The notes: a model not told the origin generated them from the sequence alone. A DNA stretch of 64,000 bases from Dipteris shenzhenensis (GCA_047967505.1 CM106538.1), one strand, 5' to 3'; counted from the stretch's first letter, positions 31,026-62,358 are shown. Numbers and translations are program-made.

Positions 31026-31859
31026 TAACGAGGATGTGGCTTCTGATCCAGTTACAACTGAGCTGAAATCTTCTAGCATCACTGACGGTGTTACGAAAGA
31101 AGAGGAGGCTCTTCTCTCGATGCCCTATATCAATCCACTCCCACTTTGGAGGATCCTATTGCAAAAAATGTATTGGGACTCCTCCATAGAGCTAAATCCT
31201 TTATGAGTCCAAGTGAGATAAGAAGCGGATCTGGGTTAAGGTACCAGTCTGAATCCGAGCTGTGTTCCACATAACCTATGATTCTGACAAGCTGAAAAGC
31301 AACACCCAACAGAACATCATCTGTAGATTTGTTAGAATTATTATTATATTCTAGGCAGTGGCCAAAGTAATGTAATAAGCGGGTTAGGGGCACTTTTTCC
31401 TATTAGAGGTTTTTCCCCCTAACCACAATCTAATCTCTAACTACAGTTAGTGATTACATAGGGTTTTGTCTAAGTACATAGGGTTTTGTCACTTAGACAA
31501 AACCCTCATCTCTTTCATTGTACTACACTTCATTTTAGTACACTTTCGGGAGTGACCTATGTTCAGCTCACTCTCCATCTTGCTCACTCTTGCTCTCTTC
31601 CATTTTTCTCACATTTGGTATCAGAGCAGCTTAAGCTCTTGGACCTGCCCCCAGCTCTCAGATCTGCTACCAGCTCCTAGCTCCCTCGCGTGCAACTCTC
31701 GTCCGTATAGCGCATTCCGTACAACCTCGCACTCACAGTCTGCACGCAGCCCAAGTTGCACATTCCGCACCAGGTCCGTACTGCTGCCTCCTCCTGAAAC
31801 CTTTCGCTCGTAAAAGACAGCCAATACACTTTCACTTGCTCTCCCTCTCTCCCTCTTTC

Positions 31860-34800
31860 AACAGAGAAACTAGGGCCCAGAACAACAGTCGGGCTGGACC
31901 CCCCCGAAGGATTTTATTGCTTGAGAGAAGATGGAGTACATAGTTCAGCATAGTAGCTGTTCATACCAAAAATCCAAACGTGAATAATGAATCATTACAT
32001 GAGCTCTTAGGCTCCCTTTCTTGGCAACAAGCCACTTGTCAATTTCTACATTACTTTCCTAATTACATGCCACTAAGGGCAACTTTGGAGTCTTCGAAGC
32101 ACTTGGTCCTGCGAACCGCCTCCTAGACTCTTGTTAGGCTCCGGTAGTACTTAGGAAAATCACTCTTCCTAGTACCTGCAACAATTAATTAAAGCGCACC
32201 ACCATGGCATCCATTAATTGTGTTAGATATCAATGCTCCACTCTCGTGTAACTACGCGGGAACCAGCTAAACTCTACTTGTAAGCCCCCCATATGAGGAG
32301 AAGGCATTTGAGTAGCTCGGTTATCCGGTAGGTCCTGGTTTGGACACTAGATGGGGGCCATGTGTGGCCTGATGGTTGGACGGAGTTGGCACACTGCCAA
32401 CTAGGCTACATGCAAGTGCGGGAAGGCATCCCATGACAGACCGCACTGAGGGTAGACAGAGCATTTTCTGGGGCAACCCACTCTCGGGTTGCGGGACCCG
32501 TTTGGAGTCCCAGATGATCTTGGATGGCTGTGGGCCGAACGGCGACCATAGGTCAGTTGCTCTATTTTACGCCACGGTTCTATCATGTGGTCGGTGGCCT
32601 ATTTCGAGACCGACCCCTAGTCGACCGTTTTGGGCGGACTTGGTCGGTCACCCAATTGGGTCCAACTGACTACGACTAGTGGCTATATAAGAGCGAGCCC
32701 GTGAAGCCCATTTCATCACTGGCTACAGCAGCCCTGATTCCTTGCATCCAGCCTCCGTCCTCTACTGTTTCCAGCTTGCCATCGAAGCTTCTTTCACAGG
32801 AGCGCACGGTTGGGAGGCAGCGCCATCTATTGTATCAGTTCTACAGTAATCAAATTTTTGATTCTCCATACTATCTGGTTTTCTCCCTTGCGTACGAGAT
32901 CCTGTTATCTGTTGAGCACAGGCGTATTATTATTTTCTTACATGGTATCAGAGCCTGGACTCTAGCAAGAAGATTTGGTAGTGTGTTTCTGTTTGCGAGC
33001 AGATTGTGAGAGATGGCCCAGCCCGCAAGACTGCGAATCCCACCGTTCGGCGAAAGCGAAAGTTGGATGGCTCTAACTATCCTCTCTGAAAGTTCAAGAT
33101 GAAGACCATCCTAAGTGCATATGAGCTTTGGGACACTGCTACTGGGGTGGACGTGAGGCCGGTGCCGAGACCAGATCCAGCCAATGCAGGACAACAGATA
33201 GTACCAACTGCGGATGAGATTCTCGCATGGACAAGAAGAAATGCAAATGCACTGTGTTCTATTGTGTGCAGTGTTAGTGATTCCGTCATGGCGTTAATTC
33301 AACATGTCACCACAGCGGAGAAGACATGGACGGTCTTGAAAAATCAGTACGAGACCACGAATCAGACACGGATTCAGAATCTGGAGACTCAACTTGCGAA
33401 CGAGAAACTTTCTGAGTCTGAAGCGACAGAGAAGTTCATCACCAGGGTGAAGAATCTGCGCGATTAGATGATTGCGATTGGCATCACCATCACCAGCGAG
33501 AACCTAGCACGAAGGTGCATACGGATTCTCCCACCAAAGCACGACGGTCTGGTTATGGCGTTGAATACGCAGAACAAAAATCCGCTCAACTTTGAGGATT
33601 TCAGCGCGATGCTTTTGGAGGAGGAGATGCGTCAAAAGACGAGGACTGAAGAAGATTCGGCTTTCTGGACTGGATTAAAGAAAGGTAAGGATAAGGACTC
33701 AGGTAACCCATGTTCTTCTGATGATAAAAAGAGAAAGAAGAAGATCAAGTGCTTCTATTGCAACAAGGCAGGGCGCAAGTAGAATGAGTGCCGAAAGAAG
33801 ATTGCAGATGAGAAGAACGGAGGAAAGAGTCCAGCAACAGCGCGCAGGCAATACCAGTAGAGCTGTTCGTAGTAATTGAGGAGATTTGCACGGAGGCAGT
33901 TCATGTACCTGCGGATGAACCTTGGATCATTGACAGTGGTGCATCGCGCCACATGACTAGTCGGAAGGATTGGTATACCTCTCTACAACCTGTAGGGAAT
34001 GACATCCTGATAGCAATCGGCAATGATGTAAAATGTCCAGCAAAAAGAAAAGTTACGATTGCTCTCAAGTCAGATGGAGTTGTAAAACAGTTGTCCGATG
34101 TTCTTTATGTGCCAGATATCCAGAGGAACTTGTTGTCCATTTCTGCGATCACGGATCGGAACCTCAAAGTTCAATTCGATAAGAATGGTGCACATATTTT
34201 GGATCTTCAAGGGAAGGTCGTTGGTAAAGGTACACGGCGCAACAACATCTACGAACTCTCAGCTTTCAGTGCTCGACTCGATGTGAAGAACACTAAGCTG
34301 TGACATGAGAGGTTTGGTCATCTAAACCTTAGTTCTTTGAAGGAGATGCATAAAAGTGGAATGATTGTAGTCCTATCAGAAATTTCAGATCTGCCCGATG
34401 TATGTGAAGCTTGCATGATGGGCAAGCAACATCGGTAGCCCTTTCCTAAAGAGGCAAGTAGGGCAAAGGCTCCTCTAGAGCTCGTTCACACGGACCTCTG
34501 CGGAAAGATGGAGACGGAAGCTTTGGGTGGTTCCTACTACTTCATGACGCTGATCAACGACTGCAGTAGAAGGATATGGATATACTTCCTGAAGACTAAA
34601 GACGAGACTTTTAGCAAGTTCAAAGAATGGCATGTAACGGTCGAGAAAGAATCGGGGAGGAAGGTGAAGAAATTAAGATCAGACAGAGGTGGAGAGTTTA
34701 CATCAACTGAATTCGAAAGTTACTGCAAAAGTCATGGGATCAAGAGGCAGAAATCCCCGCCACATACATCACAGCAAAATGGAGTAGCAGAGCGCAAGAT

Positions 34801-37800
34801 GCGCGTCATCTGCGAAATGGACCGGAGTATGATGAAAGGGAAAGATTTACCAAAGACTTTTCGGGCTGAAGCATGTAACACGGCAATTTACATTCTCAAT
34901 CGTAGCTACACGAAGGCTGTGAACAGGATGACTCCACTGCAGGCCTTTTCTGGTAAGAAACCTTCAGCTGCATACTTCAGAGTTTTTGGATGTGACTGTT
35001 TTGTGCATGTCCCTGATGCTAACAGCACCAAATGGGAATCGAAGAGCCGGAAGTGTATTTTCTTGGGCTACAGTGAAGAGGCGAAGGGTTACCGTCTCTA
35101 TAATCCTGTTACCAAGAAGGTAATAGTAAGTCGCGATGTGGTCTTCTCAGAACAACCGCATCAATTGAAGAAGGATGCTTCTTTCCCAGACAACTAGGAC
35201 CATGATATCCATCCAGTACCACCACCAACAGCAGACCGAACTCCCCCAACGGTGCTTGGGAGGATTCAAGATAAAGAAGATGAAGAAGAGCCTGCAGAAC
35301 CACAACGGCAACGGTCATTCTCGAAGTGGGTAAAGCAGCTTTTGGACGGCAGAGAACCTTCAGCCATTGAGGAGGAACCATCCGAACACTGTCGGTCCAA
35401 GAGATTAGAGGAGCAAAGAAGGGCGCATGAACACTTGGTCAACTATGCTTTGCTGACAGAGGTGATCCGTGCCTTGAAGAGGCACAGGGTGATGACAGGT
35501 GGATGGAGGCTATGCAGTCGGAGTATGGCTCCATAATGAAGAACAACACTTGGGACCTTGTGGATCGTCCACCAAAATGCAAGGTAATCGGCACCAAGTG
35601 GGTGTACAAGACCAAGTACAAGTCCGACGGCACGTTGGATAAGTACAAGGCTCGGCTCGTGGCAAAAGGATTCGCACAGGTACATGGTTTTGATTATTAG
35701 GATACTTTTGCTCCCACAGCTCGACTAACCACAATTCGCAGTGTTTTGGCTTTAGTAGCCCAGGAAAGTTGGTCCGTGTTTCAGATGGATGTAAAATCCG
35801 CCTTTCTGAATGGAGATCTCAAGGAGGAGGTATACGTGGAACAACCACCAGGTTTTGTGATCCCGGTTCAAAAGGTAAAGTTTGTAAACTGAAGAAGGCA
35901 CTTTACGGGCTGAAACAGGTCCCACAAGCGGGGTACCAGCGAATTGATGCCTACTTTCTGCAAAACAGGTTCAGGAGGAGCCCATCTGATGTAAATTTGT
36001 ATATCTTCAGAGAAGGAGGCAGGTGTATGATCGTGGTCCTTTATGTGGACGATCTTGTCATAACAGGGAACCATGAAGAGAAGATCTCGCAGACAAAGCA
36101 TTTGCTAGGAAGAGAGTTTGAAATGACAGACCTTGGACTGATGCATTTCTGTTTGGGGATTGAAGTTTGGCAAGATCCGAAACAGATCTTCATTTCACAG
36201 TTGAAGTATGCTGGAGAGATACTGAAGGCATTTGGCATGGTTGAGTACAAGACAGTTGGTACCCCTATGGAGGTTGACGTGAAGCTCTCAAACGAGGATT
36301 CATCACCATTGGTGGACGAAGCGAAGTATAGAAGACTTGTGGGTAGTTTGATTTACTTGTGCAACACGCGGTCGAACATCAGCTTTGCGACTGGTGTAGT
36401 AAGCAGGCTTTCCAATAAGTCTCGGGAGAACCATTGGAGGACAGGGATGTGAGTGCTGAAATACATCGAAGGCACACTTGATTATGGCATCACCATACCA
36501 AGGGCAACATCTTGACCGGATTTTGTGACTCGGATTAGGCAGGAGACGTGGACAGCAGGAGATCAGTCACATGTTACTGTTTCTCACTTGGATCTGGAGC
36601 TGTGTCATGGGTCAGCAAGAAGCAACCCATAGTTACTCTTTCTTCTACCGAGGCTGAGTACAAATCAGCTTGCTTTGCTTCTTGCGAGGCAATGTGGTTG
36701 AGGAGGATTTTAGGGGACATGGGTGCAGTGCAGAACAAGCCAACGCAGTTATCATGTGACAATCAGAGTTGCATGGCGATTGCAAAGAACCATGTGTTCC
36801 AGGCTCGCACAAAACACATTGAGATTCAATATCACTTTGTACGCGAGCTCATCATGGATGGAGAGGTCGACTTGGTGTACTATCCGACTACACAGAATGC
36901 TGCGGACATCTTCACGAAGGCTCTTGGAAGAGACTTGTTGGAGAGGCATCTTCATCGACTTGGCATTGGGCCAAAAAAGTAAGTTCACTTGCGGGTGGAC
37001 ATTGAGGGGGGTTGTTAGATATCAATGCTCCACTCTCGTGTAACTACGCGGGAACCAGCTACACTGTACTTGTAAGCCCTCCATATGAGGAGAAGGCATT
37101 TGAGTAGCTCGGTTATCCGGTAGGTCCTGGTTTAGACACCAGATGGGGGCCATGTGTGGCCTGATGGTTGGACGGAGTTGGCACTACCAACTAGGCTACA
37201 TGCAAGTGCGGGAAGGCATCCCATGATTGACCGCACTAAGGGTAGACAGAGCATTTCCCGGGGCAATCCACTCTCGGGTTGCGGGGCCCATTTGGAGTCC
37301 CAGATGATCCCGGATGGCTGTGGGCCGAACGATAACCGTAGGTTTGTTGCTCTATTTTACGCCACGGTTCTATCGTGTGGTCAGTGGCCTATTTCGGGAC
37401 CGACCCCAGTCGACCATTTTGGGCGGACTGGGTCGGTCACCCAATTGGGTCCAATCGACTACGACTAGTGGCTATATAAGAGCGAGCCCGTGAAGCCCAT
37501 TTCATCACTGGCTACAGCAACCCTGATTCCTTAGCATCCAGCCTCCGTTCTCTACTGTTTTCAGCTTGCCATCGAAGCTTCTTTCACAAGAGCGCACGGT
37601 TGGGAGGCAGCGCCATCTATTGTATCAGTTCTACAGTAATCAAATTTTTGATTCTCCATACTATCTGGTTTTCTCTCTTGCGTACGAGATCCTGTTATCT
37701 GTTGAGCACAAACGTTGTATTATTTTCTTACAAATTGTTAGCGCTTTGCATGCAAATAATACATTGTGGACTAATTCTAGTCACGGTTGGCGTCCCCACT

Positions 37801-38265
37801 GAACACATGTGCACACATAACAAATATATAAATATACATTTATTCTCGGGTTGACCGAAGTCAACGCTCGTGATCATAATTAAGGGCTTTGACCAAGGGT
37901 TGGGGCGCCTTAATTATAGTCAAGTCTCTCCAACCGAAGTTGGCACAACTCTCCAACCGAAGTTGGCTCAACTTGGTTAACTGTAGTTAACCCTCTTGGC
38001 GCATGCCAAATCTCGTTGACCAAAGTCAACACTCTTTGACCGTAGTCAGCTCTGTGGTTCTTTGGTTAACCGCAGTTAACTCTCTTGGTAATATACCAAG
38101 TCTCCCCGACCGAAGTCAGGTTTACTTGACCAGAGTCAAGTATCTTTGACCGTAGTCAATTCTCTGACCATTAAAAGAACTCTTTGACCATAATTAACCT
38201 AGATGGAAACTCTTTAATTATGATCAAATAAATGGTCAACTGTACTTTGACTTAGGACATTTACA
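31860..38265 (-). mobile_element. Solo or partial LTR in reverse orientation, split by element D
   Basis: Minus-strand start TGTAAATGTCC at 38265, repeat array next to it, minus-strand aataaa near 31913-31918; left boundary uncertain. Confidence 0.5.
32221..37732 (+). mobile_element. Full-length Ty1/copia element 'D' (5512 bp)
   Basis: LTRs 32221-32942 and 37013-37732 (about 40 differences counted by eye); TSD AATTG on both sides; PBS 32943-32954; PPT gagggggg; disrupted gag-pol 33013-36982. Confidence 0.98.
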
Positions 38266-41200
38266 TTATGGTGACACCTCCCATCCGTACACTTCTGTCC
38301 ATACACAGGCGTTGATCACCGTCCGTACAAGCGTACGGCGCCGTATAGCCTGTTGTACTGCCGTACTACAGTACGGTTGTCCATACCATACTGCAGGCTC
38401 CTGTGGATATTCTGTACTGTCAGCTCCCCGCACGTGTGACGCCTGTCATCGTTGTAGCTTTGTACGATTTCGTCGGTTCCGTCGTACAGTCATCCGTACA
38501 CTATAGGGATTTCGTCGTATAGTCATCCGCACATTGACCGTACACTGACAGTTCTGTAGTGTCAGCTCGGTGCAGGCTGAATGTGTCCGTACAGTTCCGT
38601 TGCAGGGCTTTTTGGGCAGACATTGGAGCTGGTTTGTAGGTGTTGAAAACAGTTAGGGCATTTGCAATTACACTGCAATTTTTGCAGTGAAATTTGGGGC
38701 TTCTGCAAGCAGAGTGCAAATTGTGCAACATTTGGGGCTTTTAGACCATTTGTCCTCTTTTGTATGCAATTTCCCACAAGAAATTGGGGCTTTTGCATTT
38801 GGGTTGCAATTTTGCAGGTAAAAGAGCATTTTGGAAGTTTGCAAGCATTTTTGGACTTAGTACAAGTCAATTTGCAGAATTTTGCCACTTTTTGCAGATT
38901 CTATTTGCAGATTTTGGGGCATTCAGCAGAGCATTGTGGTGCATTTTGAGCCTTTGATAGGCTATGATAGTATTTGTCACTGCGGGCAGATTTTCTTTGC
39001 AGATTTTACTTGTGCATTTTGCATCCTGGGAAGGGATTTTACTTGTTCAGTTTGCTGTTTTTTCTGAGTTTATCTGGCAACAATGGCTCAGAACAACCCC
39101 AATGAGGTGTTCGGAGTCCTCACACAGGAGGATAAGTTGGATGGCACCAACTACTCCTTGTGGAGCTTTATGGTTTGCAATATCTTGGTTGGCAGACATC
39201 TTTGGGACTATGTCAATGGAGATGAAGCGAGACCAGATACAGTGGCCACACCTGTCACTCCTACCGCTGGAGGCAGGGGTAGAGGTCAAAATGCAGCACA
39301 AGTAGTTGGAGCTGCCGCTCCAGGAGCTCCCACAGCAGAGCAGAAAAGATGGGATTCTAGAGATGCACAAGCTCTATCAGTGATTTCTCTCTCTGTCAAG
39401 GGGTTCATTATACCTCACATTCAGTCATGCGAGACATCAAAGGCAGCTTGGGAGATACTAGAGAGTATGTTTGCAGCAAGAAATGATGCCAGAGTTTCCT
39501 TTATGAAGTGAGAGCTTTCTCATACGCATATGGATGAGGGAGATTCCACGAATTCTCACGTCACAAAGCTTTAGGATTTGAGGGAGCAACTGTTGAATAT
39601 TGATGAAGTCATTTAGAGATGATTACCACCACTCTGAATTCTCTTCCTGAGTCCTATATCGGTTTCCACACTTCGCTGAATTTGTCATTGAGGAGGGACA
39701 GCAATCCTCTCTCTTTTCACGAGTTGGTAGAACTTCTGTTGCGGGAGGAGCAGACATGAAGAAATATGGCAACCCGGGCTGGCGAGCATGGCATGCTTTC
39801 CAAGTTCAAGCCTAAGGGAAAAGGGCAGCAAAAGCAACATGCCAATCAGCCCTCACATCAACATAAAGATTCAAGACAGCCCTCTTATAAGGCTAAGGGT
39901 GATGCAAATAAGCAGAAAAAGAAGGGCATTTGTCACTAATGCAAGATGCCAGGTCATTATATTGGAGAATGCAAGAAGCGCATAGCTAAAGAGAAGAAAA
40001 GGGATTCAGGTGTGGTTGTCTCAGATGCATCAGCTTCTCATTCACATGATGGGGGAGATGTTGCAGCCAACTTTGTGGAAGAGCACTATGCTATTCTGTC
40101 TTGCACTTTAGATTTTACAGTGGGTAGTTCAGTTGCTACAACCACTAATGATGATGATCCTTATGCTTTCTTGACTTGCAGTTATGATCCTTCAAAAGAT
40201 GCATGCTCTCTCAGTGTCAATGAGACACTGAATACTTGGTATTTTGACAGTGGTGCTTCAAAGCACATCACTTTCAAGAAGAGTCTTTTTTCATCTTTGC
40301 ATTCTCCACCTACCAAAAAGGTGACTTGTGCAAATAATTCTTCTTATTCAGTGTGTGGAGTGGGGGACATTATTCTCACATTCACTAATGGCACATATTT
40401 CAGAATTTCAGATGTTCTCTATGTTCCAGGCATAAAGAAGAATTTGATTTCAGTGTCCTCTCTTAATAGAGGAGGATTTCAGGTTGTATTTGATGATGCT
40501 AAGTGTGCAATCAGAGACAAAGAGAATGACTATGCTTTGATGTTGTCTGGCACTTTGTATCGGGGTCTTTTTCAGCTTGATTTATATCCGATCATGCATT
40601 TTCAGTAAGCACTCCTACTGTTGTGACGCAAAATGCGGAGTTATGGCATGCTAGGTATGGGCACATGAGCTATGGCAGCTTAATGACACTACAGAAGCAT
40701 GATATGGTTGATGCATTGCCTCCGTTAGAGTCATTTCCTCCTCATTCATGTAAGGGTTGCATCCTTGGCAAGATGCATAGATTTCCTTTCAAGAAGGATG
40801 GTGCAGTGAAAGTTACATGCAAATTACAGCTTATTCACAATGATGTCTGCGGTCCCATGAGGACACCTGCTTTTGGGGGTTATCTTTATTATGTTACATT
40901 CATAGATGACTTCATCAACTACACTTGGGTCTATGGTCTTAAGGCAAAATCATAAGTGTTTATGCATTTCAAACACTTTGTGGCTATGGTTGAGAATGAG
41001 ACAAGACTCAAGGTGCAGACACTTCGCACAGATCGAGGGGGGGAGTATATGTCTCATGAGTTTGAGGCATTTTTGGAGGAGGAAGGCATCACGCATCAGC
41101 TTACAGTGAGGCTTACATCTCAACAGAATGGCAAAGATGAGCGGAAGAATCACATTCTTATGGAGATGGATAGATGCATGCTTACTAGTAAAAAGTTGCC

Positions 41201-43402
41201 TCACAGGTTTTGGCTTGAAGGCCTCATGTGTGCCAACTATGTTTTGAATCGGGCTCCCACAAAGGCTTTCAAGACAATTACTCCCTATGAGGCTTGGCAT
41301 GGGAGAAAGCCTTGTGTGGACCATTTCAGAGTTTTTTGTTGTGTTGCATATGCCCACGTGGCTGTGGAGTTTCGACACAAGTTGTCAGATAAGGCACTTT
41401 AATGCATTTTTGTGGGGTATATAGTTCACAAAGCAAAGGCTATTGTCTCTACAATCCTGCTTCACGCAAGATTTTTGTTAGTAGAGACGTTATATTCTCT
41501 GAAAATTCAGCACATACACATGCTGAATTTCAGATTCCAGCTTCTTCAGATGATGTTTTTGAGGGGATGCTTCCTATAGCATTTGGTTCCCCAGTTGAGG
41601 TTCATGCTGAAAATCAGAACTTACAGCAACCTCCTCTTGATCCATATGCCCCGATTCAACCACCGGTTGATTTTGTATCTCCACAGGGTGTGCATGAAGT
41701 TGTCAGGCAAGAGATTCAAGAGATACACTCAGCCAAAATAGTCCCGAATTGGTTGCTACAGACTCTCAGGGAGAGTAGGCTTGAGGCCCGATTGCCTGGT
41801 AGGACTCGTAGTGCGGTAAGGCACGCAGGGGGGGCTCTTTCAGTTGAGACAGCTTATGCAGGGACTCTTCTTGATGAAGAGGAGCCTGACTCTTTTTAAG
41901 AAGCAAAGGATAATGTGCATGCATAATGAGTTGCAGTCCATTGAGAAAAATCAAACTTGGGATGTTGTGGATTTGCCACCAGGTAAGCATGCCATTGGTA
42001 CCAAGTGGGTTTTCAAGGTAAAAAGAAGCCAGATGGGTCTATTGACAAGTACAAGGCAAGGCTGGTTGCCAAAGGCTATGCATAGAAGACTTTTGCTCCT
42101 ACATCCTGAATGACCACCATGCGGTCAGTTATTGTAATGGCTGCAAATTTTGTATGGAATGTCCATCAGTTGGACATAAAAACAGCTTCCCTTAATGGGG
42201 ACTTGCAGGAAGAGTTTTATGTCAAACAACCTCCTGGATTTGAACTTTCTGGCAATGCACTTCAGGTTTGCAAGCTTAACAAAGCTTTATATGGGCTGAA
42301 ACAAGCCCCACGTGCATGGTATGCCAAGATAGATGCATTCCTGGCAAGTAAAGGATTACATAATAGTCCCACGGAAAGCACTCTCTACATCAAGAAGGAT
42401 GGGGGGGATATTTTGGTCATCATTCTTTATGTAGATGACATGCTGCTCACAGGGTCAAATGAGGATATAATTGCAGATTTTAAGGCTGAGTTGAAAGCTG
42501 AATTTGACATGATAGATTTGGGCATGCCAAATTTTTATTTGGGGATCCAGTTTATACAAGACAAGCGTGGCATCGTTATGTCTCAATCCAAGTATGTGTT
42601 CCACATGCATGATTGTAAGCCTATAGCCACTCCCGTGGAGCCAGGGCTGAAGCTTACTATGTATGATGCAGTTGAATCAGTGGATGTCACACTTTACAGC
42701 CAGGCTGTTGGATGCCTCATCTACTTATGCAATACATGGCCCGATATTTAGTATGCAATATCTCAGGTGAGCAGATATATGCACAGCCCAAAGACAACAC
42801 ATTGGCAGGCAGTAAAATGCATCTTTCGTAAGGCATAAAGTCTTATGGCTTGATGTTTCCCGGGGGGTGACTTATAGATGCATGATTACAGTGATTCAGA
42901 TTGGGCTGGAGACTATGATACCAGGCAGTTCACTAGTGGTAATTGTTTGTTTTTGGGAAAAGCTTGCATTTCTTGGCTAAGCAAGAAGCAATCTACAGTG
43001 GCTACTTTCTCATGTGAAGCTGAGTACATGGTAGCTTTCACAGCGACAGTTGAGTGTGTTTGGCTATGACGTTTGTTCGCTTATCTTCATCTCTTATCGG
43101 AGGGTCCATCTCCAATTCTCACTGATAGTCAGAGTGCTATAGCAGTGGCAAAGAATCCTGTGTTTCATGCTCGCACGAAGCACATTGAGGTTCATTATCA
43201 GTATGTCAGAGAAAAGTGTAGGCTATCTCATGGGCTATCCATAGATGCCACTTATACCTTGGTATGAGCCTTGTAGGCCTAGTTATAGTCAATTAGGACT
43301 ATATCCATTCCTTCAGCCATTGACAGCTTTCTCAAGCTGTTTGTCAGCCTTTTGAGCTCTCATTCTTACTGATTTGCTTAGTTTTTCGAGGTTTTCTATA
43401 CA
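38266..43402 (+). mobile_element. Copia element 'E': leader, disrupted gag-pol 39083-43267, LTR-like 3' remnant
   Basis: KLDGTNYSLW, WYFDSGAS, LRTDRGGEY, YVDD, TKHIEVHY; related to B; no intact LTR pair. Confidence 0.9.
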
Positions 43403-44958
43403 TCTGTGAGGACTTGTGACCTCCTAGAGTATTTCTGTCGCGGGAACGCCACGTAAAACTAATCAGGGGGCAAGTTCCAGGCAAAACCAGAAACGGCCGC
43501 ACCTGGGCTCGTGTAGATGTTCAACGAGGCACCCCGATTCTGAAAAGAATACATGAAACCCTATTTTGGCGCGGAAAATCGGTGCACTTACTGCACATTT
43601 ATTGCTCGCAGCATCTGTACAGAATTCCGTACACGCTGAATTCCATACTCCTGGATGTCAGTAAGCATTTACTGCAGTACGGAGCTGCCTTGGGGTACAT
43701 GTCAGTTACATTGAAGGTTTCTCAGCATTTCGGAGCTGCCTCGAGCTGCGTGCCGGCGTTTGGAGCCATTTGGAGCTGCTGAATTGATCCGGAGAGTGCT
43801 CTCTGAGCCTTTCGCTCCTCATTTGGCATCCCTTTGCCTCAGGTTGCGAGCTTCTCTCCATTGGATCCCTTTCTCTCCATATCTACGTGCTCTCCTCCTC
43901 ATGGGAGCACTTCCTTTGCTGTAATTCTCATTTCCAGCCCTCATTTGCTCGCTTTCAGAGCCTGTCAGTGCTGTACATCATTGGGTAAGTCGTTGTTGCA
44001 TTGGCTTTTTCCAATTTTTGCTTCATTTGCATTTTGGAAAGGCCTCGTGTTGCCTTGGAAGGCCTCGTGTTGCCCTTGGGGATTTTTCTTGCAATAGGTA
44101 CACCTTGGGACAGCAGAGTCTTTTGCAGACATAAGCTTTGAAGCTTGGGCAGATTTTTAGCACTTGATTCTAAGAGGTTGCCTTTCTCTCATTTGCTTTG
44201 CCAGTTGGTGCATTTGCCTTGTATTTCAGCACCATGTCTGGTGGCAAAAATGATTTGTTTGGGCAGATTGGGGCCGATGACAAGCTTGATGGCACCAATT
44301 ATCCCATGTGGTCGTACATGATGGGACATGTTTTGGTTGCCAAGAATCTATGACATATTGTTTCAGGTTTTGAGGCTAGGCCTACATGCACTGTTACTGG
44401 TGCTACACCTACAGCCTCTGCTTCTTCAGGTGATGGTTCTACTGCTATAGCCAGGACTCCTACACCTCCTGCTCCAAGTGCTTTGCCTCCTTCACAGGAG
44501 AAAATTCAGTGGGATGGTCGTGATGCCAAAGCACGTGCCTTGATTGCTCTTTCAGTGAAACGGGTTATTATTCCTCATATTCGGTCTTGCAAGATAGCTA
44601 AGCAAGCATGGGATTAGCTTGCATCTTTGTGTCAGGTGCGGAATGAGGTGAGGGTTGCCTATTTCCGTAGGCAGTTGAAAAATTTAAAGCTTGATGAGGG
44701 TGGTAACATGGATATATTCTAAGCAGTGGCCAATGTAATGTAACAAGCGGGTTAGGGGCACTTTTCCCTCTTAGAGGTTTTTCCTCCTAACCACAGTCTA
44801 ATCTCTAACTACGGTTAGTGATTAGATAGGGTTTTGTCACTTAGACAAAACCCTCATCTTTGTCATTGTACTACACTTCATTTTGGTACACTTTCGGGAG
44901 TGACCTACGTTCAGCCCACTCTCCATTTTGCTCACTCGTGCTCTCTTCCATTTCTACG

Positions 44959-46473: not shown

Positions 46474-47019
46474 AAAAAGGCAATGTTAAAAGCCACTGCT
46501 TTTTAATGGATGAATACCGCACCAAAGTGCAAACCAAGTACAAAATGAAGGTGCGAAACTATTTGCGGATGCCAAGGGAAAACATAAATAGGTGTTTGCT
46601 AAGAGGGCAAGGTACACTCAGGGACTTGACAATCTAGTGGATATACGTAGAAGTGTGGAATTGCAATGGCACTCTTATGTCAGATTTTGGGAACCTTTCT
46701 GATAAAAACAAAGGGTCACAGGCCAACAGTAGATATCCTTTGAAGTAAAAGGGCAATAGTAAAAGGCATTTAATTTTTAATGGGTGAAGACTGCACCAAA
46801 ATGCAGCCAGTACAAAATGAAGGTGCGAAACAATCAATGGATGCCAAGGGAAAAGATAAATGGGCTCTTTGCTAAGAGAGCAAGGTACACATCAGGGACT
46901 TGACAAATTAGTGGAATATATGTACCAGTGTGGAATTGCAATGGCACTCTTCTGTCAGATTTTGGGAACCTTTTTTATAAAACTAAGGGTCATATGCCAA
47001 CAGTAGATATCCTTTGAAG
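46474..47019. repeat. Diverged tandem duplication, 2 x ~272 bp
   Basis: 46474-46745 and 46746-47019 share gtacaaaatgaaggtgcgaaac, gtgtggaattgcaatggcactctt and gccaacagtagatatcctttgaag. Confidence 0.92.
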
Positions 47020-48518: not shown

Positions 48519-48612
48519 GTACGAAAAGGCACAAGACAGGAAAGCCAAGTGCTTGGATGCCATCAGGTCTTTAGATCTACCAAACAATCCACTTGATGAC
48601 ATTATTGATCAG
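48519..48612 (+). CDS. FGT1: FGT1 exon p (YEKAQDRK...SLDLPNNPLDDIIDQ)
   Basis: aatcag| ... CAG|gtatgc, 94 bp. Confidence 0.95.
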
Positions 48613-50151: not shown

Positions 50152-53100
50152 AGAAGTAGAAGTAGAAATTATTATCGTCCACGGGGGGCCGAAAACGACC
50201 CATGGGACCCGAACGGTGTACAAGAAAAGTCTCCTCCGGTGTGGAGGGGTCAAGAATTTTCAAGTTCTTGACGGTACAAAAAGAGGCGGGTAACAAAAGA
50301 TCCTAATGCTGCCGGCGAGGCAGTGGAAAGGACTGATGTTAAGTGTGTGGAGTCTCCCAGTAACTTCCGGTAGTCCTCCCTAATGTGTGCATAACTGGGA
50401 CACTGCAGAGCTATATGTGCCTCTGTCTCCACTGTTTGAGAGTCACAAAATCTGAGGCATGTCGCGGAAGATTCAACCACGCTCCCTTCTCAATTGCAAG
50501 CATGTGAGATCTAGTCCGGAATCTAGCAATATTTCTGCGATAGAGCAAGGGGATGGAAGTGCTGATGTATGCCTGAGCAGGGGCCTCTTTTGTCATATAT
50601 GTGGACCAACATGTGGGGTTGATGTGATCTTGGTAATACTCCAGCTTCACCCTCTTCTTTGTTGTTAGCCATTGAGTTTGTAGAGTGCTTAGTAGGGACA
50701 TCTGAAACTCTTGGATATCAATTCTTGCGGGTGGCATAGTCAGGTATGAGTCTACATTCCATCTCCTGAACCACTTCCTTATATCTGTCCCCCATCCTGT
50801 GCAAATGATCTTGCTCTTATGGTTCTTTTGAAGTTTCATGCTGGCCATCCATGCCCTGTGAGGTAATCTTTCCGTTTGCATTTGTTGTACCTCCACTAAG
50901 TATTGCAGTACTCTAACCATAGCATGGAACTCGATAGGTCTCCTGCCTGTTTCTAATAGTAGCACCTATGGAGTAGTTGCCTTTACACCTAAGTGGCGGC
51001 GTAAGAAAGCCTTCTGCATTTTTTCGATCTCATTCCATGTCGATGGGGGAATGCTGCCTCCCCATACTTCCCCCACTCCATAGAGTATTGTTTGAACCAC
51101 ATATGCATCAAACAAAATGTTCCGAATCTTCCAATTGCGAGTGTTGGTGTGCCTGCAGTCATTTTCAAAGTGATAGTATTTGCCCCAGCCTGCGTCTAGT
51201 CTTCTTTGGACACATTGCCACCATCTATGATCTGCTGGAATATCAATTCCTAGGTATTTAAAAGTATTGACATATTCGAGGGGCTGTCCATCGAATATAA
51301 TGTCTGGGGGATGTAAAGGCTGAATGGTGCACACTGCCATCATTTTGGTTTTGTTGACATTTACCTGCAGCCCGCTCTCTAGACAAAAGGTCTTCAATAT
51401 CTGTAATAGTTTGTGCATGTGGTCGGGATCATATGCAAAAAGAACTATATCATCTGCATATAGCAGTAACAATATTACCCACACTCCTATTTTGGGGCCT
51501 TGTATGTCTTCTGTTGACATAGCTTCTTTTACAAGTTCTTCTAGCCTGTCAATGCATATCCCAAATAAAGTGGGTGAGAGTGGGCAGCCTTGCTTGACTC
51601 CCATGTTGCTTTGAAATGCAGTCAATAGTCCCTGAGATTGCTTCAATCGGCATAGAACTTTTTCATATATCCGGGAGATGCCCACTCTGAGTGTCAGAGG
51701 GACCTCCAGGATGTGCATTCTATCCCATAAACCTCCTCGTGGTACTGTATCAAATGCTTTTCTGAAATCAACAAAGCAACAGAGTAGAGTGTTTCTGTGT
51801 AATCTGCTTTCATCCATGAGGACCCTCAGTGTAACGAGGTGGTCTGCAGTTCTGTGTTCTTTGCGGAAGCCTGCTTGCCCAATAGCCCTTTTCTTGGCTT
51901 CTTCTGCCCAGCTGCTGATTTTTGCTTCAAGTATTGTACTAAAAAGTTTGGCTGGGGTGGAGCTGACCATTATAGTTCGATAATTGGTAACTGAATTTCT
52001 GTCGCCTCCCTTGAAAAGGGGCTGAACCCAATTTTCCTGCCAATCAAGCGGGAAACCATGTTGTAAAGCGTGTGTTAACACCTGTGATAGCCACTCTCTT
52101 GCTTTGTCTCCTGTCCATTTTAGAAATTCAGCGCACATAGACATGTGGTCAGATGCTTTTCCATTGGCCATCTTTTTCAGCCCTGTTTCTATGTCTTCAA
52201 ATGCAAAAGGATTGGGAGAAGCAAGTGGTATCTCTTCAGTCCCCATTTCTGTCGCATTGACATGATTGTAGAGTTTAATGACGTATTCCATCATATCTTC
52301 ATTTGATATATTCCCCATGATCTTTTTCTTCGGACTCTTGACATGCCTCCAACCTTTCTTGGGATTTTTAATGAATGTAAGTAAATCAGATTTTTCCTTT
52401 TCTAGAATGTAATGCCTCTTCTTTTTCCGTGTGAGAGCATTATATTGTTTCTCCTTCTGTCTGTACAAGTTTGTGTTTGGAATGTGTTTCAATGCTTTGC
52501 GCATTTGCTTGCACTCTTCATCGTACCATTTCTTACATGGTAGACCTTTGACCAATTTCTGTCTTGCTTGGGGGGCTACTCCAAACACCTTTGTGGCGGT
52601 GTCCAAGATAGCCTCTTTGAGGGCTCCCCATGTGGGTGTAACTGCCATTGCATTCAGCTTTGCATCTAGTGTGATGGCATATTCTTTCTGTTTCTCTTGA
52701 TCCACCCGGAAGCCTCTTGGATGTGCTGTAATTTTCTGTGTGGGGATTTCAGCCTGCACACTAAGGGTGAGCCACAGGGAGAGATGGTCTGACTCTGGCT
52801 GTTTTGCTCCTATTTTGAGGCTCTGAACGTTAGGTAATGCATCTACATGTGCCAAAGTGCCCTCCACTAGCCGAAAAACATGTAGTCCCATTGGTCCCGG
52901 GAAATAGTTGCATTCCATTTAGTATTGGCATATGTAGACCATTCATCATGCTTCTGAGTGCTCTGCCTTGTGCATTAATGGTGTTATCGTCTGAGATCCT
53001 GTACCATCCGTCATCCACTTCGATTGCATCCTCTTTATCCATTTCATCATGCATGATCGGCTGAAATTGCATTTGTCCAGTTCTTGCATTGAGATCACCC

Positions 53101-53867
53101 AGTATTATGACTTTACCTACTTCCTTCAACTCAGCAATGTCTAGGCATAAGGCTACAAATGCATCACTGGTGTCTATTCCATTCCTGCCATAAAAGGGAG
53201 AGTCATGATGTGGTATATAGCAACCTGCAATGAAGAGAGGGCATGCGCCTTCGACTTTCAGCCATATAAACCTCTTGTATTTGTCGGCTCTGTAGAAACT
53301 GATCTTTTCTGCCAAATGTTCCTGATACATGCATGCTACACCACCTTGACCTCTTTTCCCTATCTGTTTCTCATACACGGTATGCACCATGTATCCTGGT
53401 ACGTCTGGAATCCCGCAAATTTCGCTCTCCCATGTTTCTCCAAGGAAAATGATGTCTGCATCTTGTATGAAAGCATTGATACTAATTCCCTTGTTCCAGG
53501 GGAATCCTCTGCAATTCCAAAACATTACTTGTAAGGACTTGTGAGTCCCATGGGTCTCGCATCCCTATTTGATAGTCTCCTCCATTGGAGGGATTTTCCC
53601 CTGTCGCTTGAGCCTCTCATTGTATTGCTTCCTTCTTATTTCTTGCTGTTTTGGGGTGCGGTCCTCACTGACATAGAAAGGGGAGCCCTTGAGGTATACT
53701 CTACTGCTGTCCAAAATGATGTCACGTTTTGTTGTGTCCATCACTGTGCATACAATGGCTCTTTTACCAGTCGTACCTTCTTCTATTCTACCCACACGAT
53801 GTGCTCCATACACTGCCACATCTGGCATCGTGAAGTGCTCTGCAAAGAACTCTGTCACCTCTTTTGC
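50152..53867 (-). mobile_element. Near-complete 5'-truncated RTEX-like LINE
   Basis: ORF1 C-terminus 53565-53867; ORF2 APE (WNCRG, ETW, GDLNARTG, SDH), RT (VDFRKAFDTV, QGCPLSP, YADD, KYLG), CCHC; (TTCTAC)3 tail; TAGT duplicated at both ends. Confidence 0.95.
50250..53525 (-). pseudogene. LINE ORF2 (APE-RT-CCHC) with three lesions
   Basis: ORF track pieces 52830-53525, 50966-52918, 50411-50965, 50250-50480; frameshift ~52860, TAG 50966-50968, frameshift ~50460. Confidence 0.93.
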
Positions 53868-54476: not shown

Positions 54477-56688
54477 TGTTGGGATATCTCAAGGTGTATG
54501 CCTCAGGCACACCTTATGTTTCTATGTGTGAGTGCTAGAGGCACAGTTAGGTGCCCACAAGCACAGTTAGGTGGTGGAAAAGCCACATAGGATGATTGAG
54601 TGAATCTAGGAGCAGATTGAGGAGATGATTGTGGAGCTTTGAGGTCATCAGTGATGTCAGTGACCTTGTATGAGGTGCCTACTTAAGGACCTCTTTCTTC
54701 TTCATTCTATAAGCAAGTATTCTGATTTTGTGTCAACTCTACTCTTTCCTTTCAGTATTCCAACATGGTATGAGAGCCATTTGATCCCCCTTGAGCCCAT
54801 TTCTGCCACATCATCATCTTCTTCTTCATCTTCTTCTTCTCCATTTTTCTCTTTCTTCCCAAAATCTTTGAGAGCTTGGTTCTCCACCTACAAACGACCA
54901 TTGCCCAAACCCTCTGAGCTGGAAACTCCTCTAGTATGGGCGAACTTCCACCTGCAAGCAATTGAAGAAAAAACGTCCGTGGTGGCTGCCATTCTCCAAA
55001 CAGCGAATTTCTTCTGTTGCTCAATACTCCCTGCCTGCTCCGCCATTGCCTGAGCCCTCTTAGGAGTAGATGGGCGACCTCAAGACGAAGATTTTGAGCC
55101 ATTTTTCAAGTCATTTGGTTCAGTAACGAGGGAGAAATCGTCAAAACTCAGTTTCAGCCTGTAGTAACTCTCCCGGGCAAAAGTGCGCACCATTTCGTCC
55201 AACCTCTGTGCTGGACCTTCTCTGGTATATGAGCTTTCTTTTGCTTCAAAAAGCCCTCTTTTCCTTGCTTTGAAGAGTGAGCTACAAGCCCTCCAAGTTC
55301 AGCTTTTCATTTTTGACAGTTTTGGACAAGTTTTGAAGATGATGCTACATAAAATGCTACTCTAGCATTTCTGGTCTTTTGAAGTTTTCAATAACTTCAT
55401 TACAAGTGTTGCTTCAGTTTTTCTTTGATTTGCTAGACCTGGTTGTGATTGGAAAGTGTTCATTTCATCCACTTCTATGAAGCATGTAAAAGGAAGCATC
55501 ATTGTTTGAAATCTAGTCACTACTATTTGCTACATTAAATGCTTATATTTTGAAGCATTTCAATTGTTATTCTAAGCCCTGTAAGAGAGAAGACACTACC
55601 CAATACTTGGGTTAGAGCCTCTCATGGCTTGCTTATGCAAAATATGTGAAAAGCCAAAACATAAAGCAATGTCTTGTTATGCTACAAAGGATGAAAATGC
55701 CAAACTGACTTCCTTGTTGAAGATTGCCAAAACAATGGTTGCCAAAAAGGAAGCAACTACAGAGATCTACCCTCTCATGGCACTTTTATTTGACTCCAAG
55801 TACAAGAAAAAGATGAAGCTCAGATACTTAAGATATGCTTCTCTACACAACTATGGAGATGACAAGATAATTGTTCTCTTGAAGGATATGACTTTCAGAT
55901 CCACTTGTTCTATCATAGTACCATCTTATAAGGCACTAGACACTGCCCATGTGGTAAGACCTTGCCTTGACATGGATATTTTGCCTCCACAAGATGAGGC
56001 ATCCCATGAAGATTATGCATTTTAAACTCATCTCTATGTATGCTCCAGATCTCTCTTTTTATGTCAAGGTACTCAGCCTGGATAGTCCTCCAAAATGAAT
56101 GAAAATAAATTATTGTGTTGTGTGTGTTTGTAAACACCTCTGGTCACCTTATGATGTAGGCCATGTGTATGTTTGTTCCATGGTACCTCCTACAGACATT
56201 GTGTGCATGTACATGTAGGAGAGATAACCATTGGAAGGTCTGTTTGTATCCCTTTCTGTTTACCTTACACCCAAGGAAACCCTTGCTAGCATGAGAACCT
56301 AGCCATAGATTTATCCTTGACCACCATGAGATGGCATGAGAAACTATGAGACTAGATGTATCCTTGACATAGCTTGAGGCATTCCCTTGAGGGGGGGTTT
56401 GTTGGGATATCTCAAGGTGTATGCCTCAGGCACACCTTATGTTTCTATGTGTGAGTGCTAGAGGCACAGTTAGGTGCCCACAAGCACAGTTAGGTGGTGG
56501 AAAAGCCACATAGGATGATTGAGTGAATCTAGGAGCAGATTGAGGAGATGATTGTGGAGCTTTGAGGTCATCAGTGATGTCAGTGACCTTGTATGAGGTG
56601 CCTACTTAAGGACCTCTTTCTTCTTCATTCTATAAGCAAGTATTCTGATTTTGTGTCAACTCTACTCTTTCCTTTCAGTGTTCCAACA
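54477..56688 (+). mobile_element. Non-autonomous mini LTR retrotransposon 'F' (2212 bp)
   Basis: 289-bp LTRs 54477-54765 and 56400-56688 with 1 mismatch; TSD AACAC; PBS TGGTATGAGAGC; PPT gaggggggg; no INT/RT/RH. Confidence 0.97.
55624..56025 (+). CDS. 133-aa ORF of element F with N-terminal CCHC zinc knuckle
   Basis: ATG-initiated, uninterrupted; CKICEKPKHKAMSC = CX2CX4HX4C; expression unknown. Confidence 0.5.
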   Translation: MACLCKICEKPKHKAMSCYATKDENAKLTSLLKIAKTMVAKKEATTEIYPLMALLFDSKYKKKMKLRYLRYASLHNYGDDKIIVLLKDMTFRSTCSIIVPSYKALDTAHVVRPCLDMDILPPQDEASHEDYAF

Positions 56689-58198: not shown

Positions 58199-61100
58199 AG
58201 TTAGAAAGCCCAACAGAGGGTACCCGCAGTGGAAGACTGATAGATGTCCCAGAAATTCACACAGAAGTGTTTATACAATGGAATCCGAAACTTCTTTACT
58301 AATGTGTACTCAAACATACATGTGTGCAAGCTAGTGCTCCAGAGATATAGAACCAACAAAATATATTTCCGTCCAAAAGGACACAATACAAAAGGAGGCC
58401 AGAATCCCACCAAATGGTGGTCCTCTATCCTTACCAAAAGGTTTTGTAATACCTCCATGGTACTTCTAATCCCCAATCTTGCGTGCTCCTCGTCGAGCTT
58501 CTGTAGAATTTAGTCACCGTGCCTTGATCCCTGCACCTTGCTGCCCTGGAAGACAGCCTAGGTGTGCAGGCCCTTCCAAGCTGGTCTGCTGCTCCAGTCT
58601 GCTCCTAATCTGCTGCTGTAGTGATCGCAAAATGAGCCCCAAGGGCTCCCCTTTTATAGGGGCTGGGGAACCCCCAAATCAGCTGACCCAGTAGGAGAAA
58701 TAGGCCGATCAAACAGCCCCCCACTGGCTGGCTTTACTGATCTGTCCAGCTGACCCTGGTTAGCTGGCTTTGACCAGACCAACCAGGTCTATATCCAGAT
58801 GGTGGCACACAGCCAGTTGTCCAGGCCCTGCCCTAAATTAGGGGCTGTGCAGGGCCAAGACCTGCCCATACAGGTGCCTCTTAGCTCTGCCATTCTTTCC
58901 TTTGTATAGGCCATGTCCAGGCCTAAACACCCTGTCAATGCTCCGCCCATGGTCCTGCAGACTGCCGTACAGATCCGCCATGTTCCTGCAGTGTTCTCGC
59001 CTCTATTGCAGACCCATTTCTGCTCCAGATCCATCGCCTCAGTTCCGTACAACCTCCTCCATCCAGCCGTACTGCTTACATGGCATCTTCAAGCTGTTGC
59101 AGTGCATTAAGGTTCCACTAACCTGCCAGGTAAGTTCATCTTTGTGCTCCCACGTGGCAAGCTCATGTGCTGTCCATGTGGTAGCCCTATGTCATCTCTT
59201 TTGATTGCTAGTATGCTGCTCACACGGCCGCCAAAGTGCTGCCCATGCGGCAGCCACATCACTTCTTGGCTCACCCTCCCATTCTCTCCTCATATGGGGG
59301 CTTATAGATGGGGAGGTTACCTGACACATCTTGGCGCGATGCCAACTTGTCGATGAAGATGCTCCAGGAGCTCCCATGTCGTAGCCCTTTGGAATACTCT
59401 AGTGCCAATGCCGATTATTGGATTTTCATTGAGTGGCTCCTATTCCACCAAGTCCAATCCTGCACAAGCACCCTAGTACGCAGTTCCATCTTTGGTAGCA
59501 CTAGATGGCACCACCTCCTATAGTCACGTTCCCGCCTTTGAACTCCAGCAATCTAGGTGCTAGCATCCTCCAACTATCCCTCTGATGGTGGGTGAACAGC
59601 CCGGCCATGCTCTCAGGTATGTTTCAACCCGTCATTCATTTGGCAAGGTCTGTAACAAAACAACATACTCTAGGACTCAAATCCCAAGCATTAATCCAGA
59701 TTACGTGGACCATCAGCTTCCATGTGTAGTTTTGTGATGTCCCTCTCTAAGTCATAGCATGCATCTGACTCTAAATCCATAGGTCCTACCGAAGAATCCT
59801 CCTCGGTGTCGGCAATATGAGTAGAGCACATGGATGACTCCAAGCACTCGTCACTGTCCTTCACCTTCACAAAGGTTTCCGACTCCTCATCTGACCATCT
59901 CTCAATGCTAGACATTCTCACCGTAACACCGTGGTCTATATATCTTATCTCAGCAACACCTGGAAATGTGACCTAGAAAAGCGCTCCTGTAACCACCCCA
60001 TTAGCTACATTCTCTGACTCTAAATCTGACTGATCCCCTTCTTTTGATCTGCTTCTTCTTTTATCAATTCTTCGCAAAATGACCTGACTCGTCACAATAG
60101 GAGCACTTTTTCTTGTGCTTCCTCTTCTTCTTGTTTTTTTCATCTGAAGAGTCTGCTCCATCATTAGACTTGTCTTTCTTGGGGTTGCCTTTACCAGGCT
60201 TATCCTTTCCCTTGCCTTTGCTTTCGTCCTGAGCTATAGGGGCTTTGTTATCGAATGCGTCGTATTTCTTCGCTCGAGCCTCTTGTTGTAGAAGCAATGG
60301 TACCAGCTCCTCGAATATGCCCTTTGCTCTGCAATAAACGTAGTCATGAAATTGTTGTAGCTCCTCGTAGGCATGCCAAGCAATAGCCTAGCCATGTTGG
60401 TCATATCGACGAACTGTTGACAACCGATCACTCACCACCTTCATCTTAGTGATGTGATCCTATACTGGATCCCTCTCAGCCATGTTGATGCCATAGAGCT
60501 CCGTCTCTAGGTCTAGAATCCTCACCTCGTTGTTCAGCTCGTACATGTCCCTCAAAGTGGTCTAGGCCTCGAAGGAAGAGGAACTACTGCATCTGCTGTG
60601 GTGCCAATGCCTCCACATCACGAAGTTACCAGGCTTTCACTAACACGGCATCTGCCAGTACAATCAATTCCGGGGTAGTCGCTATAGCTGGAGTCACTGT
60701 GGGTTGAGGCATTACCTCTCCACCTGTTGCAATCTCCCACATCTCTCTCAATACTACATGGCTTTGGACTTTCATCTTCCACAATGGGTAATTAGTCCCA
60801 TCCAACTTACCTGTGTTCCCAAAATTAGGAATAGGATATCTCTGGGCCATGGCAATGAACTGAGAAGAGAGAGAGTTAAACAAGCCTCCCATCCAACTTA
60901 CTTGTGTTCCCAAAATTAGTCCCATCCAACTTACCTGTTTTCCCAAAATTAGGAATAGGATATCTCTGGGCCATGGCAATGAACTGAGAAGAGAGAGAGT
61001 TAAACAAGCCTCCCTTGAAAAGGTACTGTCCTTCAGACGTCGAAGTTGATTTCCCCCTGCTGAACTTCTGATCAGAGCGCTGATACCATATTAGAAATCC

Positions 61101-62358
61101 CAATAGAGGGTACCTGAAGCGGAAGACTGATTGATAACCCAGGAATTCACACAGAAGTGTTAGTACAATGAAATTCAAAACTCCTTTACTTATGTGTACT
61201 TTAAAGATACATGTGTGCAAGCCAGTGAATAGACAATGCTCCAGATATAGAACCAACAAAATATATTTCTGTCCAAAAGGACACAATAAAAAAGGAGTCG
61301 AGAGTCCCACCAAATTGTGGTCCTCTGTCCTCACCAAAAGGTGTTGTCCTACTACCTCTATGGCACTTCTAGATCCCTAAGCATGCGTGCTCCTCGTCGA
61401 GATTTTGTAGACTTTAGTCACCGTGCCTTGATCCCTGCACCTTGCTGTCCTGCAAGACAGCCTAGATGTGCAGCCCCTTCCAAGCTATGTCTGCAGTTCC
61501 TCAGCCCCTTTGTCCTTCTGGATGTAGGCCCAAAGACTACTGGTATACTGCTCCAGTCTGCTGCTGATCTGCTGCTCTAGTGGATGCCAAAATGAGCCCC
61601 AAGGACTCTCCTTTTGTAGGGGCTAGGAGCCCCCAAATCAGCCAATCCAGTAGGGGAAATAGGCCGACCAAACAGCCCCTGGCCAACCTTGCTGCTCTGT
61701 CCAGCCGACCCTGGTTGGCCAGCTTTGACCAGCCCAACCAGGTCTATACCCAGCCGCCAGGCCATGTGGCACACAGCCAGTGGTCCAGGCCCATTTCTGC
61801 CCCAAATCGGGGGCTGCTGCAGGCCCAAGACCTGCCCAATACAGGCACCTTTCAGTCCTCCCATTCTCACCTTTGTTTAGGCCATGTCCAGGCCCTAAAC
61901 ACCCTGTCAATGCTCTGTCCAGGGTCCTGCGGACTGCCGTACAGATCCGCCATGTTCCTGCAATGTTCTCACCTCTATCACAGACCTGCTTCTGCTCCAG
62001 AGCCACTGCCTCAGTTCTGTACAGCGTCCTCCATCCAGCCATACTGCTTGCATGGCATCTTCGAGCTGTTGCAGTCCACCAATGCTCCACTAACCTACCA
62101 GGTAAGTTCACCTTTGTGCTGCCCACATGGCAGCTCGTGCTGTCCATGTGGCAGCCCCATGTGATCTCTTTTGATTGCTTGTATGCTGCCCACATGGCAA
62201 CCAAAGTGCTGCCCATGTGGCAGCCACATTGCTTCATCCTGCCCCCGCCCCTTCCGCCCCCCCCCCCCCCCCCCCCCCCCGCCGCCCCCCTTTTCTCTCC
62301 CAAAAAACTAGAAAACTCTCCTCATATGGGAGGTCACAGATGGGGAGGTGACCATACA
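58199..62358 (-). mobile_element. Gag-only copia-related LTR element 'G' with long diverged LTRs (61089-62358 and 58199-59326)
   Basis: LTR copies align by eye; minus-strand PBS TGGTATCAGCGC 61077-61088; KLDGTNYPLW and CSYCDESGHFAKN; no pol, TSD or clear PPT. Confidence 0.85.

Follow-up and report, generated by a model that had tools for sequence, protein, structure and literature searches.

The window analysed here is a stretch of 64,000 nucleotides of Dipteris shenzhenensis DNA (GCA_047967505.1 CM106538.1), in which all positions are counted from the first letter. It contains a nest of Ty1/copia retrotransposons, recognised by Pfam scans and by self-comparison of the window, and a host gene. 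Clusters of the hexamer CCGTAC, a candidate site for transcription factors of the SBP/SPL family, were found in the regulatory or leader regions of four elements, designated A, E, X and G, out of the seven Copia-type elements surveyed in this one 64-kb window (A, B, D, E, F, G and X). An earlier, sequence-only reading of the same DNA had proposed that at least four elements share the motif in such regions, and the present survey bears this out.

Exact copies of CCGTAC were counted on both strands of the whole window and compared with dinucleotide-preserving shuffles. The window held 28 copies against an expected 5.55 +/- 2.31, and none of 100 shuffles reached 28. Four control regions (5,617 bp) contained 25 of these copies and the other 58,383 bp contained three, a 74-fold enrichment. 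Among 2,077 six-letter words, CCGTAC was the sole strongly enriched word found twice or more in each of the four control regions, the regions having been selected with the motif known; its overlapping variants ranked below it, and the first non-overlapping word, CAGCAG, was enriched 3.1-fold. A decay-tolerant scan for C[CT][GA]TAC, covering the motif and its CpG-decay forms, examined 109 matches and placed groups of at least three in the A leader (two groups) and at 31705-31776, 38240-38589, 43615-43677, 58866-59067 and 61937-62039, and nowhere else. Since 16 unrelated metagenome Copia loci (91,308 bp, several loci being near-duplicates) held seven single copies and no pair, the clusters are not a general Copia property.

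Element A (12330..18609, + strand) is a young, intact-looking Copia with 205-bp long terminal repeats (LTRs) that are 99.5% identical and a primer-binding site (PBS) at 12537. Its leader cluster (12734-12839) contains 10 CCGTAC and consists of a 27-bp tandem repeat of 3.3 copies with 77% matches. A second array in the A leader, at 12946-13170, has 12 GTAC cores, mostly GTACA, without CpG, and includes a 42-bp tandem repeat. A contig of run X7, from another organism, has six letters in place of 162 bp (12907-13068) of this GTACA array, and the length of the array therefore varies between copies or species. The spaced pair GTAC-N4-GTAC occurs nine times in the window against 0.33 expected, in every case in the A and E leaders.

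The next clusters lie within a compound Copia, C (31330..44958, + strand), which has its 5′ LTR at 31330-31613, its PBS at 31616-31627 and its 3′ LTR at about 44701-44958. The two LTRs share 86.6% identity over 261 bp, and the 3′ LTR end reads CG. Because the flanks are AGATT and AGATC, the C-type LTRs were taken to bound one old insertion; whether C was inserted only once was also examined by comparing LINE (long interspersed nuclear element) flanks, which gave no usable similarity. C encloses the nested element D, the E coding region, the X leader and the X gag. D (32221..37732, + strand) is a Copia with 720-bp LTRs that are 94% identical and a PBS at 32943. In four contigs of run X6, position 32220 is followed directly by the sequence found from 37738 on; this is the empty site of D, which thus inserted later into a C-type leader that had been continuous. 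The cluster at the start of C (31703..31781, + strand) lies 76-165 bp past the PBS, all in sense. The sequence-only reading had listed CCGTAC at 31703, 31717 and 31776; the first of these positions reads CCGTAT, a match of 5/6, and the copies at 31717 (+) and 31776 (+) are exact. Local clusters were tested with 5000 dinucleotide shuffles per interval, the intervals being picked with the sites already known; in that at 31620-31870, two CCGTAC were found against 0.031 expected (P=0.0004).

The E cluster (38285..38592, + strand) comprises eight CCGTAC, six sense and two antisense, at a distance of 480-780 bp upstream of where the E gag begins, against 0.54 expected from local shuffles, and contains two CCGTAC-N4-GTACGG units. 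The E coding region (39068..43217, + strand) is degenerate and retains gag, protease, integrase, reverse transcriptase (RT) and RNase H as judged by Pfam and tblastn. Its homology to the B pol ends at about 43217, and the last ~33 residues, the polypurine tract and the 3′ LTR are missing. The X leader cluster (43615..43682, + strand) follows, 540-600 bp upstream of a second gag. In the sequence-only reading this was a cluster of CCGTAC at 43615-43682; indeed, 43627 (+) and 43677 (-, reading GTACGG on the plus strand) are exact, but 43615 reads CTGTAC and 43643 reads CCATAC. The two exact copies compare with 0.047 expected in the interval 43520-43780 (P=0.0016). The second gag is an N-terminal fragment (44219..44668, + strand) with matches to Pfam Retrotran_gag_2 and DUF4219; it has two stop codons and ends ~30 bp before the C 3′ LTR. 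About 40 bp upstream of the X cluster, at 43565-43578, lies TTTTGGCGCGGAAAA, two overlapping E2F-like words (consensus TTTSSCGC) in palindromic arrangement.

Neither E nor X has its own LTR pair. The C LTRs and PBS, together with the 31.7-kb cluster, may be native either to E, X being nested, or to X, E being nested; deletions would be needed in both cases. The five labels of the sequence-only reading therefore did not survive as five elements, since C forms one compound element with either E or the leader at 43.6 kb.

Element G (58201..62290) is a minus-strand Copia with an internal deletion and with LTRs that are ~85% identical. Its 5′ LTR runs from 61091 to about 62290, its PBS lies at 61077-61088, a gag fragment at 60626-61090, and its 3′ LTR runs from 58201 to about 59290. 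Three CCGTAC occur in U3 of the 3′ LTR (58965..59072) at 58965 (+), 59045 (+) and 59067 (+), against 0.045 expected at 58860-59160, a number that none of the 5000 local shuffles equalled. In the 5′ LTR (61937..62044, + strand), CCGTAC is kept at 61937 (+), and the positions 62017 and 62039 read CTGTAC and CCATAC, both changes being CpG transitions; the single exact copy compares with 0.028 expected at 61830-62130 (P=0.027). All of these words had been reported correctly, as had their location within an LTR, but the element runs on the minus strand, so that the sites lie in U3 antisense to G. They read GTACGG in G's own sense, and a TATAAAA box follows ~330-430 alignment columns downstream of them. 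G also contains a 124-bp tandem repeat (99% matches) in its internal region at 60790-61014, and its 5′ LTR ends, on the outer side, in a C-rich tract of 49 bases (62242-62290).

The carriers have the features of Copia elements. The Pfam order Retrotran_gag_2, Pol_BBD, rve, SH3_retrovirus, RVT_2 was found in A, B, D and E, following the Copia domain order gag, protease, integrase, RT. TG..CA ends and 5-bp target-site duplications typical of Ty1/copia LTRs were found for A (GCCTC, perfect), D (AATTG), F (AACAC, perfect) and C (AGATT/AGATC, the 3′ LTR ending in CG). PBS-like words with 0-1 mismatch occurred at 12537, 31616, 32943, 54766 and 61077 (-); the word used for the scan is complementary to initiator tRNA-Met. 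Two more words of this type lie near the window start, at 423-434 (-) and 4427-4438 (+), with 0 and 1 mismatch, respectively, and suggest more Copia-type fragments there. The element at 423-434 has a leader that continues past the window edge, and the surroundings of 4427-4438 contain no CCGTAC cluster. Element F (54477-56688) is a 2.2-kb young, non-autonomous Copia-type element with 289-bp LTRs that are 99.7% identical, the PBS TGGTATGAGAGC and no recognisable gag or pol, and it is free of CCGTAC. Elsewhere in the window, 46500-47019 is occupied by a tandem duplication of 274 bp (1.9 copies with 87% matches).

The host gene has element A inserted in one of its introns, in the gene's own orientation. 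On the plus strand, an upstream exon (10216-10704) encodes an AAA_34 domain (Strawberry-notch / FGT1-type), and further exons, including 21511-21640 and 21757-21904, lie in the region 21203-22226, where contigs of three runs span five GT..AG introns. Two isolated exact sites, at 21864 (-) and 22407 (-), were assigned to host exons, and all other exact copies fall in non-coding control regions of the Ty1/copia elements. The statement that exons and LINEs lack comparable clusters holds for the LINE at 50411-53564, in which the decay-tolerant scan found no C[CT][GA]TAC group; the isolated site at 21864 falls within the host exon 21757-21904, as defined by its GT..AG joints in those contigs.

Sensitive blastn comparison of the four control regions and two others returned only two matches, each containing the motif: a 14-mer common to the C start and the G LTR, and the 17-mer GCCGTACnACAGTACGG common to A and E. 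RT of A is 43-54% identical per segment to those of B, D and E. The closest pair, B and E, shares 55% in RT and 57% in integrase, and the gag N-termini of E, X, G and B are 41-52% identical, with the X gag at 42% to E gag and 52% to B gag by tblastn. The A gag matched no other element in the window. D RT is as close to A RT as any other element's, yet D is without the motif. Because the leaders align only at the motif and the proteins are 41-57% identical, no recent common leader is indicated. Descent of all carriers from one leader, which the sequence-only reading had named as fatal to its proposal, is thus not supported in its recent form by these comparisons; a deep common origin of E, X and G may be reflected in their gags.

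Beyond the window, the E and A gag proteins had no relatives among viral contigs. The A gag-protease open reading frame matched distant Copia only, at 16 metagenome loci (25-44% identity in 14, and 76% over 21 residues in two), and a protein atlas search returned Copia-type clusters, mostly from Streptophyta. The A and B internal regions (12300-32299) were matched at 90-99% by contigs of runs X3, X4, X6 and X7, whose labels name three different organisms and an 'algae metagenome'. Spliced host-gene contigs occur in some of them, which are therefore probably RNA; no listed run is recorded as RNA. Contig cover was slight or absent over 12300-12966, the interval with the A cluster. The A and B Copia families appear to be common to related species and are possibly transcribed.

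The clusters lie in CpG-rich surroundings. Observed/expected CpG was 1.08 in the A cluster and 1.02 in the E cluster, compared with 0.0-0.4 in the coding part of the elements, and because A is a recent insertion its CpG island reflects an active lineage. The nested D has high CpG throughout (0.56-0.86), against 0.0-0.6, mostly under 0.4, in the A, B and E coding parts; judging by these ratios, neighbouring Copia families seem to differ in long-term methylation history. Directly upstream of the E cluster, a palindrome array (37850..38160, + strand, extending to 38400) has arms of 5-8 bp around a 4-nt spacer. It is the densest such region of the window, with about a dozen units at a period of ~20-23 bp; the interval 37840-38400 contains 11 perfect palindrome units against 0.56 expected, with a maximum of four in 1000 shuffles. 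The arms include TTGAC, CCAAC, GTTAAC, GTTGAC, GGTTAAC, TACTTGAC, TTGGC and others, and the spacer is often CGAA, CGTA or CGCA; TTGAC is the W-box core as well. From unit to unit the arms change together, a pattern suggestive of selection for pairing or of a mechanism that makes palindromes.

On the complementary strand CCGTAC reads GTACGG. PMC10796333 gives TNCGTACAA as the sequence bound by the SBP domain, in which GTAC is the indispensable core, and an Arabidopsis DNA affinity purification sequencing study reports that ten 'class B' SPLs prefer GTACGG (bioRxiv 10.1101/2024.09.13.612952). The sites in the window have the GTAC core and fit these consensus sequences partially in their flanks: of the 28 copies, 14 have T at -1, and 15 have A and none C at +1. 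The sequence-only reading's description of CCGTAC as an SBP/SPL-type word is consistent with this match to the class-B site. Because SPL genes span streptophyte algae and all land plants (PMC10796333), the SPL idea is not tied to one taxon. Its miR156 part is applicable only where miR156/529 exists.

We tentatively favour, while stopping short of calling it probable, the reading that the clusters are arrays of SBP/SPL-type factor sites forming a portable enhancer module of several Copia families. A host SBP protein would bind the arrays on DNA, and binding would raise transcription from the LTR promoter. Elements with a very short LTR (205 bp in A, 284 bp in C) would have their sites just downstream in the leader, and an element with a long LTR (~1.1 kb in G) would have them upstream of the TATA box, in U3. 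Each family would have gained its sites independently or swapped them as very short modules, and after insertion the sites would decay by CpG deamination, as any methylated sequence does. An enhancer is favoured because the array is found downstream when the LTR is short and upstream of the TATA box when the LTR is 1.1 kb. The more far-reaching form of this proposal is doubtful, namely that deeply diverged Copia families of one streptophyte genome independently evolved SBP/SPL arrays, in the leader if the LTR is tiny and in U3 if it is long, and so wired their transcription to the SPL network.

Several observations weigh against SBP/SPL enhancer arrays. A match of 6-8 bp to a factor consensus is cheap, and the second A of TNCGTACAA is not favoured, position +2 being G in 16 of the 28 copies and A in five. 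B, D and F, three of the seven elements, have no cluster, with the 5′ end of B undefined. Three of the four carriers have their sites within the RNA, downstream of where transcription is expected to start. The CpGs are kept across the whole leader island and not in the motif alone, and many CCGTAC sites are palindrome arms and adjoin the strongly structured palindrome array. The counts are partly non-independent, given the 27-bp tandem repeat of A and the internal duplications of E. The sequence-only reading had expected strand symmetry of DNA sites and strand bias of an RNA signal; relative to the elements, 15 copies are sense and 10 antisense (15 and seven in the leaders, three antisense in G), but all 11 leader copies of the 7-mer CCGTACA are sense, a bias that looks more like RNA-level constraint or tandem duplication than like free-orientation sites.

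A signal in RNA or single-strand cDNA, in which the palindromic GUAC, CGUACG and CCGUACGG and CCGUAC-N4-GUACGG hairpins would serve dimerisation, Gag packaging or translational control, is somewhat unlikely, although the sense bias of CCGTACA counts in its favour. Retroviruses and Ty1 keep dimerisation and packaging signals between PBS and gag, where the motif lies in A, C, E and X, and the internally deleted G and X might mimic an autonomous partner's signal. Perfect CCGTAC-N4-GTACGG units number four against 0 expected, and the minimum-free-energy fold of 12720-12850 pairs such units as hairpins. Folding energies were expressed as z relative to composition-matched shuffles. The neighbouring arrays are structured (E palindrome array z -5.5 / -4.6; A GTACA array -4.7 in sense), and the X cluster reached -3.4 on the plus strand against -1.1 on the minus strand. 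The other CCGTAC clusters, however, are no more structured than shuffles: z was -1.6 in A, -1.9 in E 280-420 and -1.0 in E 440-610, with no excess structure at the C start (-0.2 / -0.6) or in G (0.1 / -0.1). With G-U pairs allowed, 19 hairpins were counted on either strand, without RNA-strand asymmetry, and no Rfam family or tRNA gene was matched. One word would moreover have to serve Gags that are 31-52% identical, that of A not being alignable, and the G sites are antisense and in U3. Because position and orientation vary between families, factor sites are favoured over one RNA signal. A coding role was considered separately and ruled out: open frames cross the A, X and G clusters, with CCG-TAC often read as Pro-Tyr, but the translations are dissimilar except between the two LTR copies of G, and the E and C-start clusters are frameless.

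That the clusters have no dedicated function, being a tandem-repeat by-product in CpG-island-like leaders that is shared through old ancestry of a leader module or through template switching between co-packaged RNAs, after which all but short repeats decayed, is unlikely. The repeats of A and E would be expected on such an account, as would the instability of the A GTACA array in the contig of another species; the sites decay by CpG transitions, like neutral sequence, and the related gag N-termini of E, X, G and B leave room for a deep lineage that three carriers may share. It sits poorly with the recurrence of the same hexamer alone in four otherwise non-aligning regions, and with A, which has the densest array despite its unmatched gag and diverged RT and which, although young, carries a CpG-rich array in a CpG-poor element; D, its RT as close to A as any, has none. 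Very unlikely, in our judgement, is a different protein preferring a CCGTAC-like word, either another host factor, possibly sensitive to CpG methylation, or an element-encoded anti-silencing or integration protein. The SBP consensus match spans just 6-8 bases, the sites are in CpG islands where cytosine methylation could gate binding, and the nearby palindrome array, with its other half-sites, suggests several DNA-binding activities. Against this, the CpG-free GTAC array of A points to GTAC itself, the SBP hallmark, and we know of no candidate for such a protein.

If the clusters are SBP/SPL arrays, they would represent convergent cis-regulatory evolution among mobile elements, with four elements having only an SPL-type site in common. 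Copper-response elements are grouped with SBP/SPL sites, and the enhancer reading predicts element activity at SPL-controlled developmental phases or under copper limitation, through SPL7/CRR1-type factors. It would also mean that SPL-responsive modules are scattered into host introns; since A occupies a host-gene intron, such insertions would offer ready-made SPL modules to nearby genes. Four unrelated-looking Copia elements sharing clusters of SPL-type sites are a testable lead, not a demonstrated mechanism.

Compared with retroviral and Ty1 leader signals, the carriers are similar in having palindromic words and short hairpins between PBS and gag, but their palindromes are predicted in stems and not in loops, and some copies of the motif are unpaired or lie antisense in U3. 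The resemblance to known SBP/SPL sites is in the exact reverse complement of GTACGG, the T at -1 and A at +1, and the multiple GTAC cores. Those sites, however, lie in gene promoters, whereas the candidates described here form dense arrays in retrotransposon leaders and U3, are often palindromic with 8-bp phasing, and depart from the consensus at +2.

Documented cases of retrotransposons borrowing host factors mostly concern one family and one factor. Clusters of SBP/SPL sites in LTR-retrotransposon leaders were not described in the literature searched, most subscription journals being outside it. The nearest report, in PMC8725346, is one table row listing an SBP-box word as enriched in Arabidopsis Pogo elements. 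A known parallel is gypsy, whose 5′ untranslated region contains 12 Su(Hw) sites (PMC2374998). As in the Copia leaders, these form a site array for one host zinc-finger protein in the element leader just downstream of the LTR (PMC2374998); gypsy differs in belonging to the Ty3/gypsy superfamily, in its kingdom and factor, in acting by enhancer blocking, and in being a single family where several are concerned here. ONSEN (ATCOPIA78), according to PMC8725346, has heat-shock-factor sites in its LTR. Those sites are in U3 and experimentally supported, whereas the SBP/SPL arrays are candidates drawn from sequence and lie mostly in leaders. The likeness is that a plant Copia recruits a host factor family through its own control region and is thereby tied to a host programme (PMC8725346), as the SBP/SPL arrays of A, E, X and G would be.

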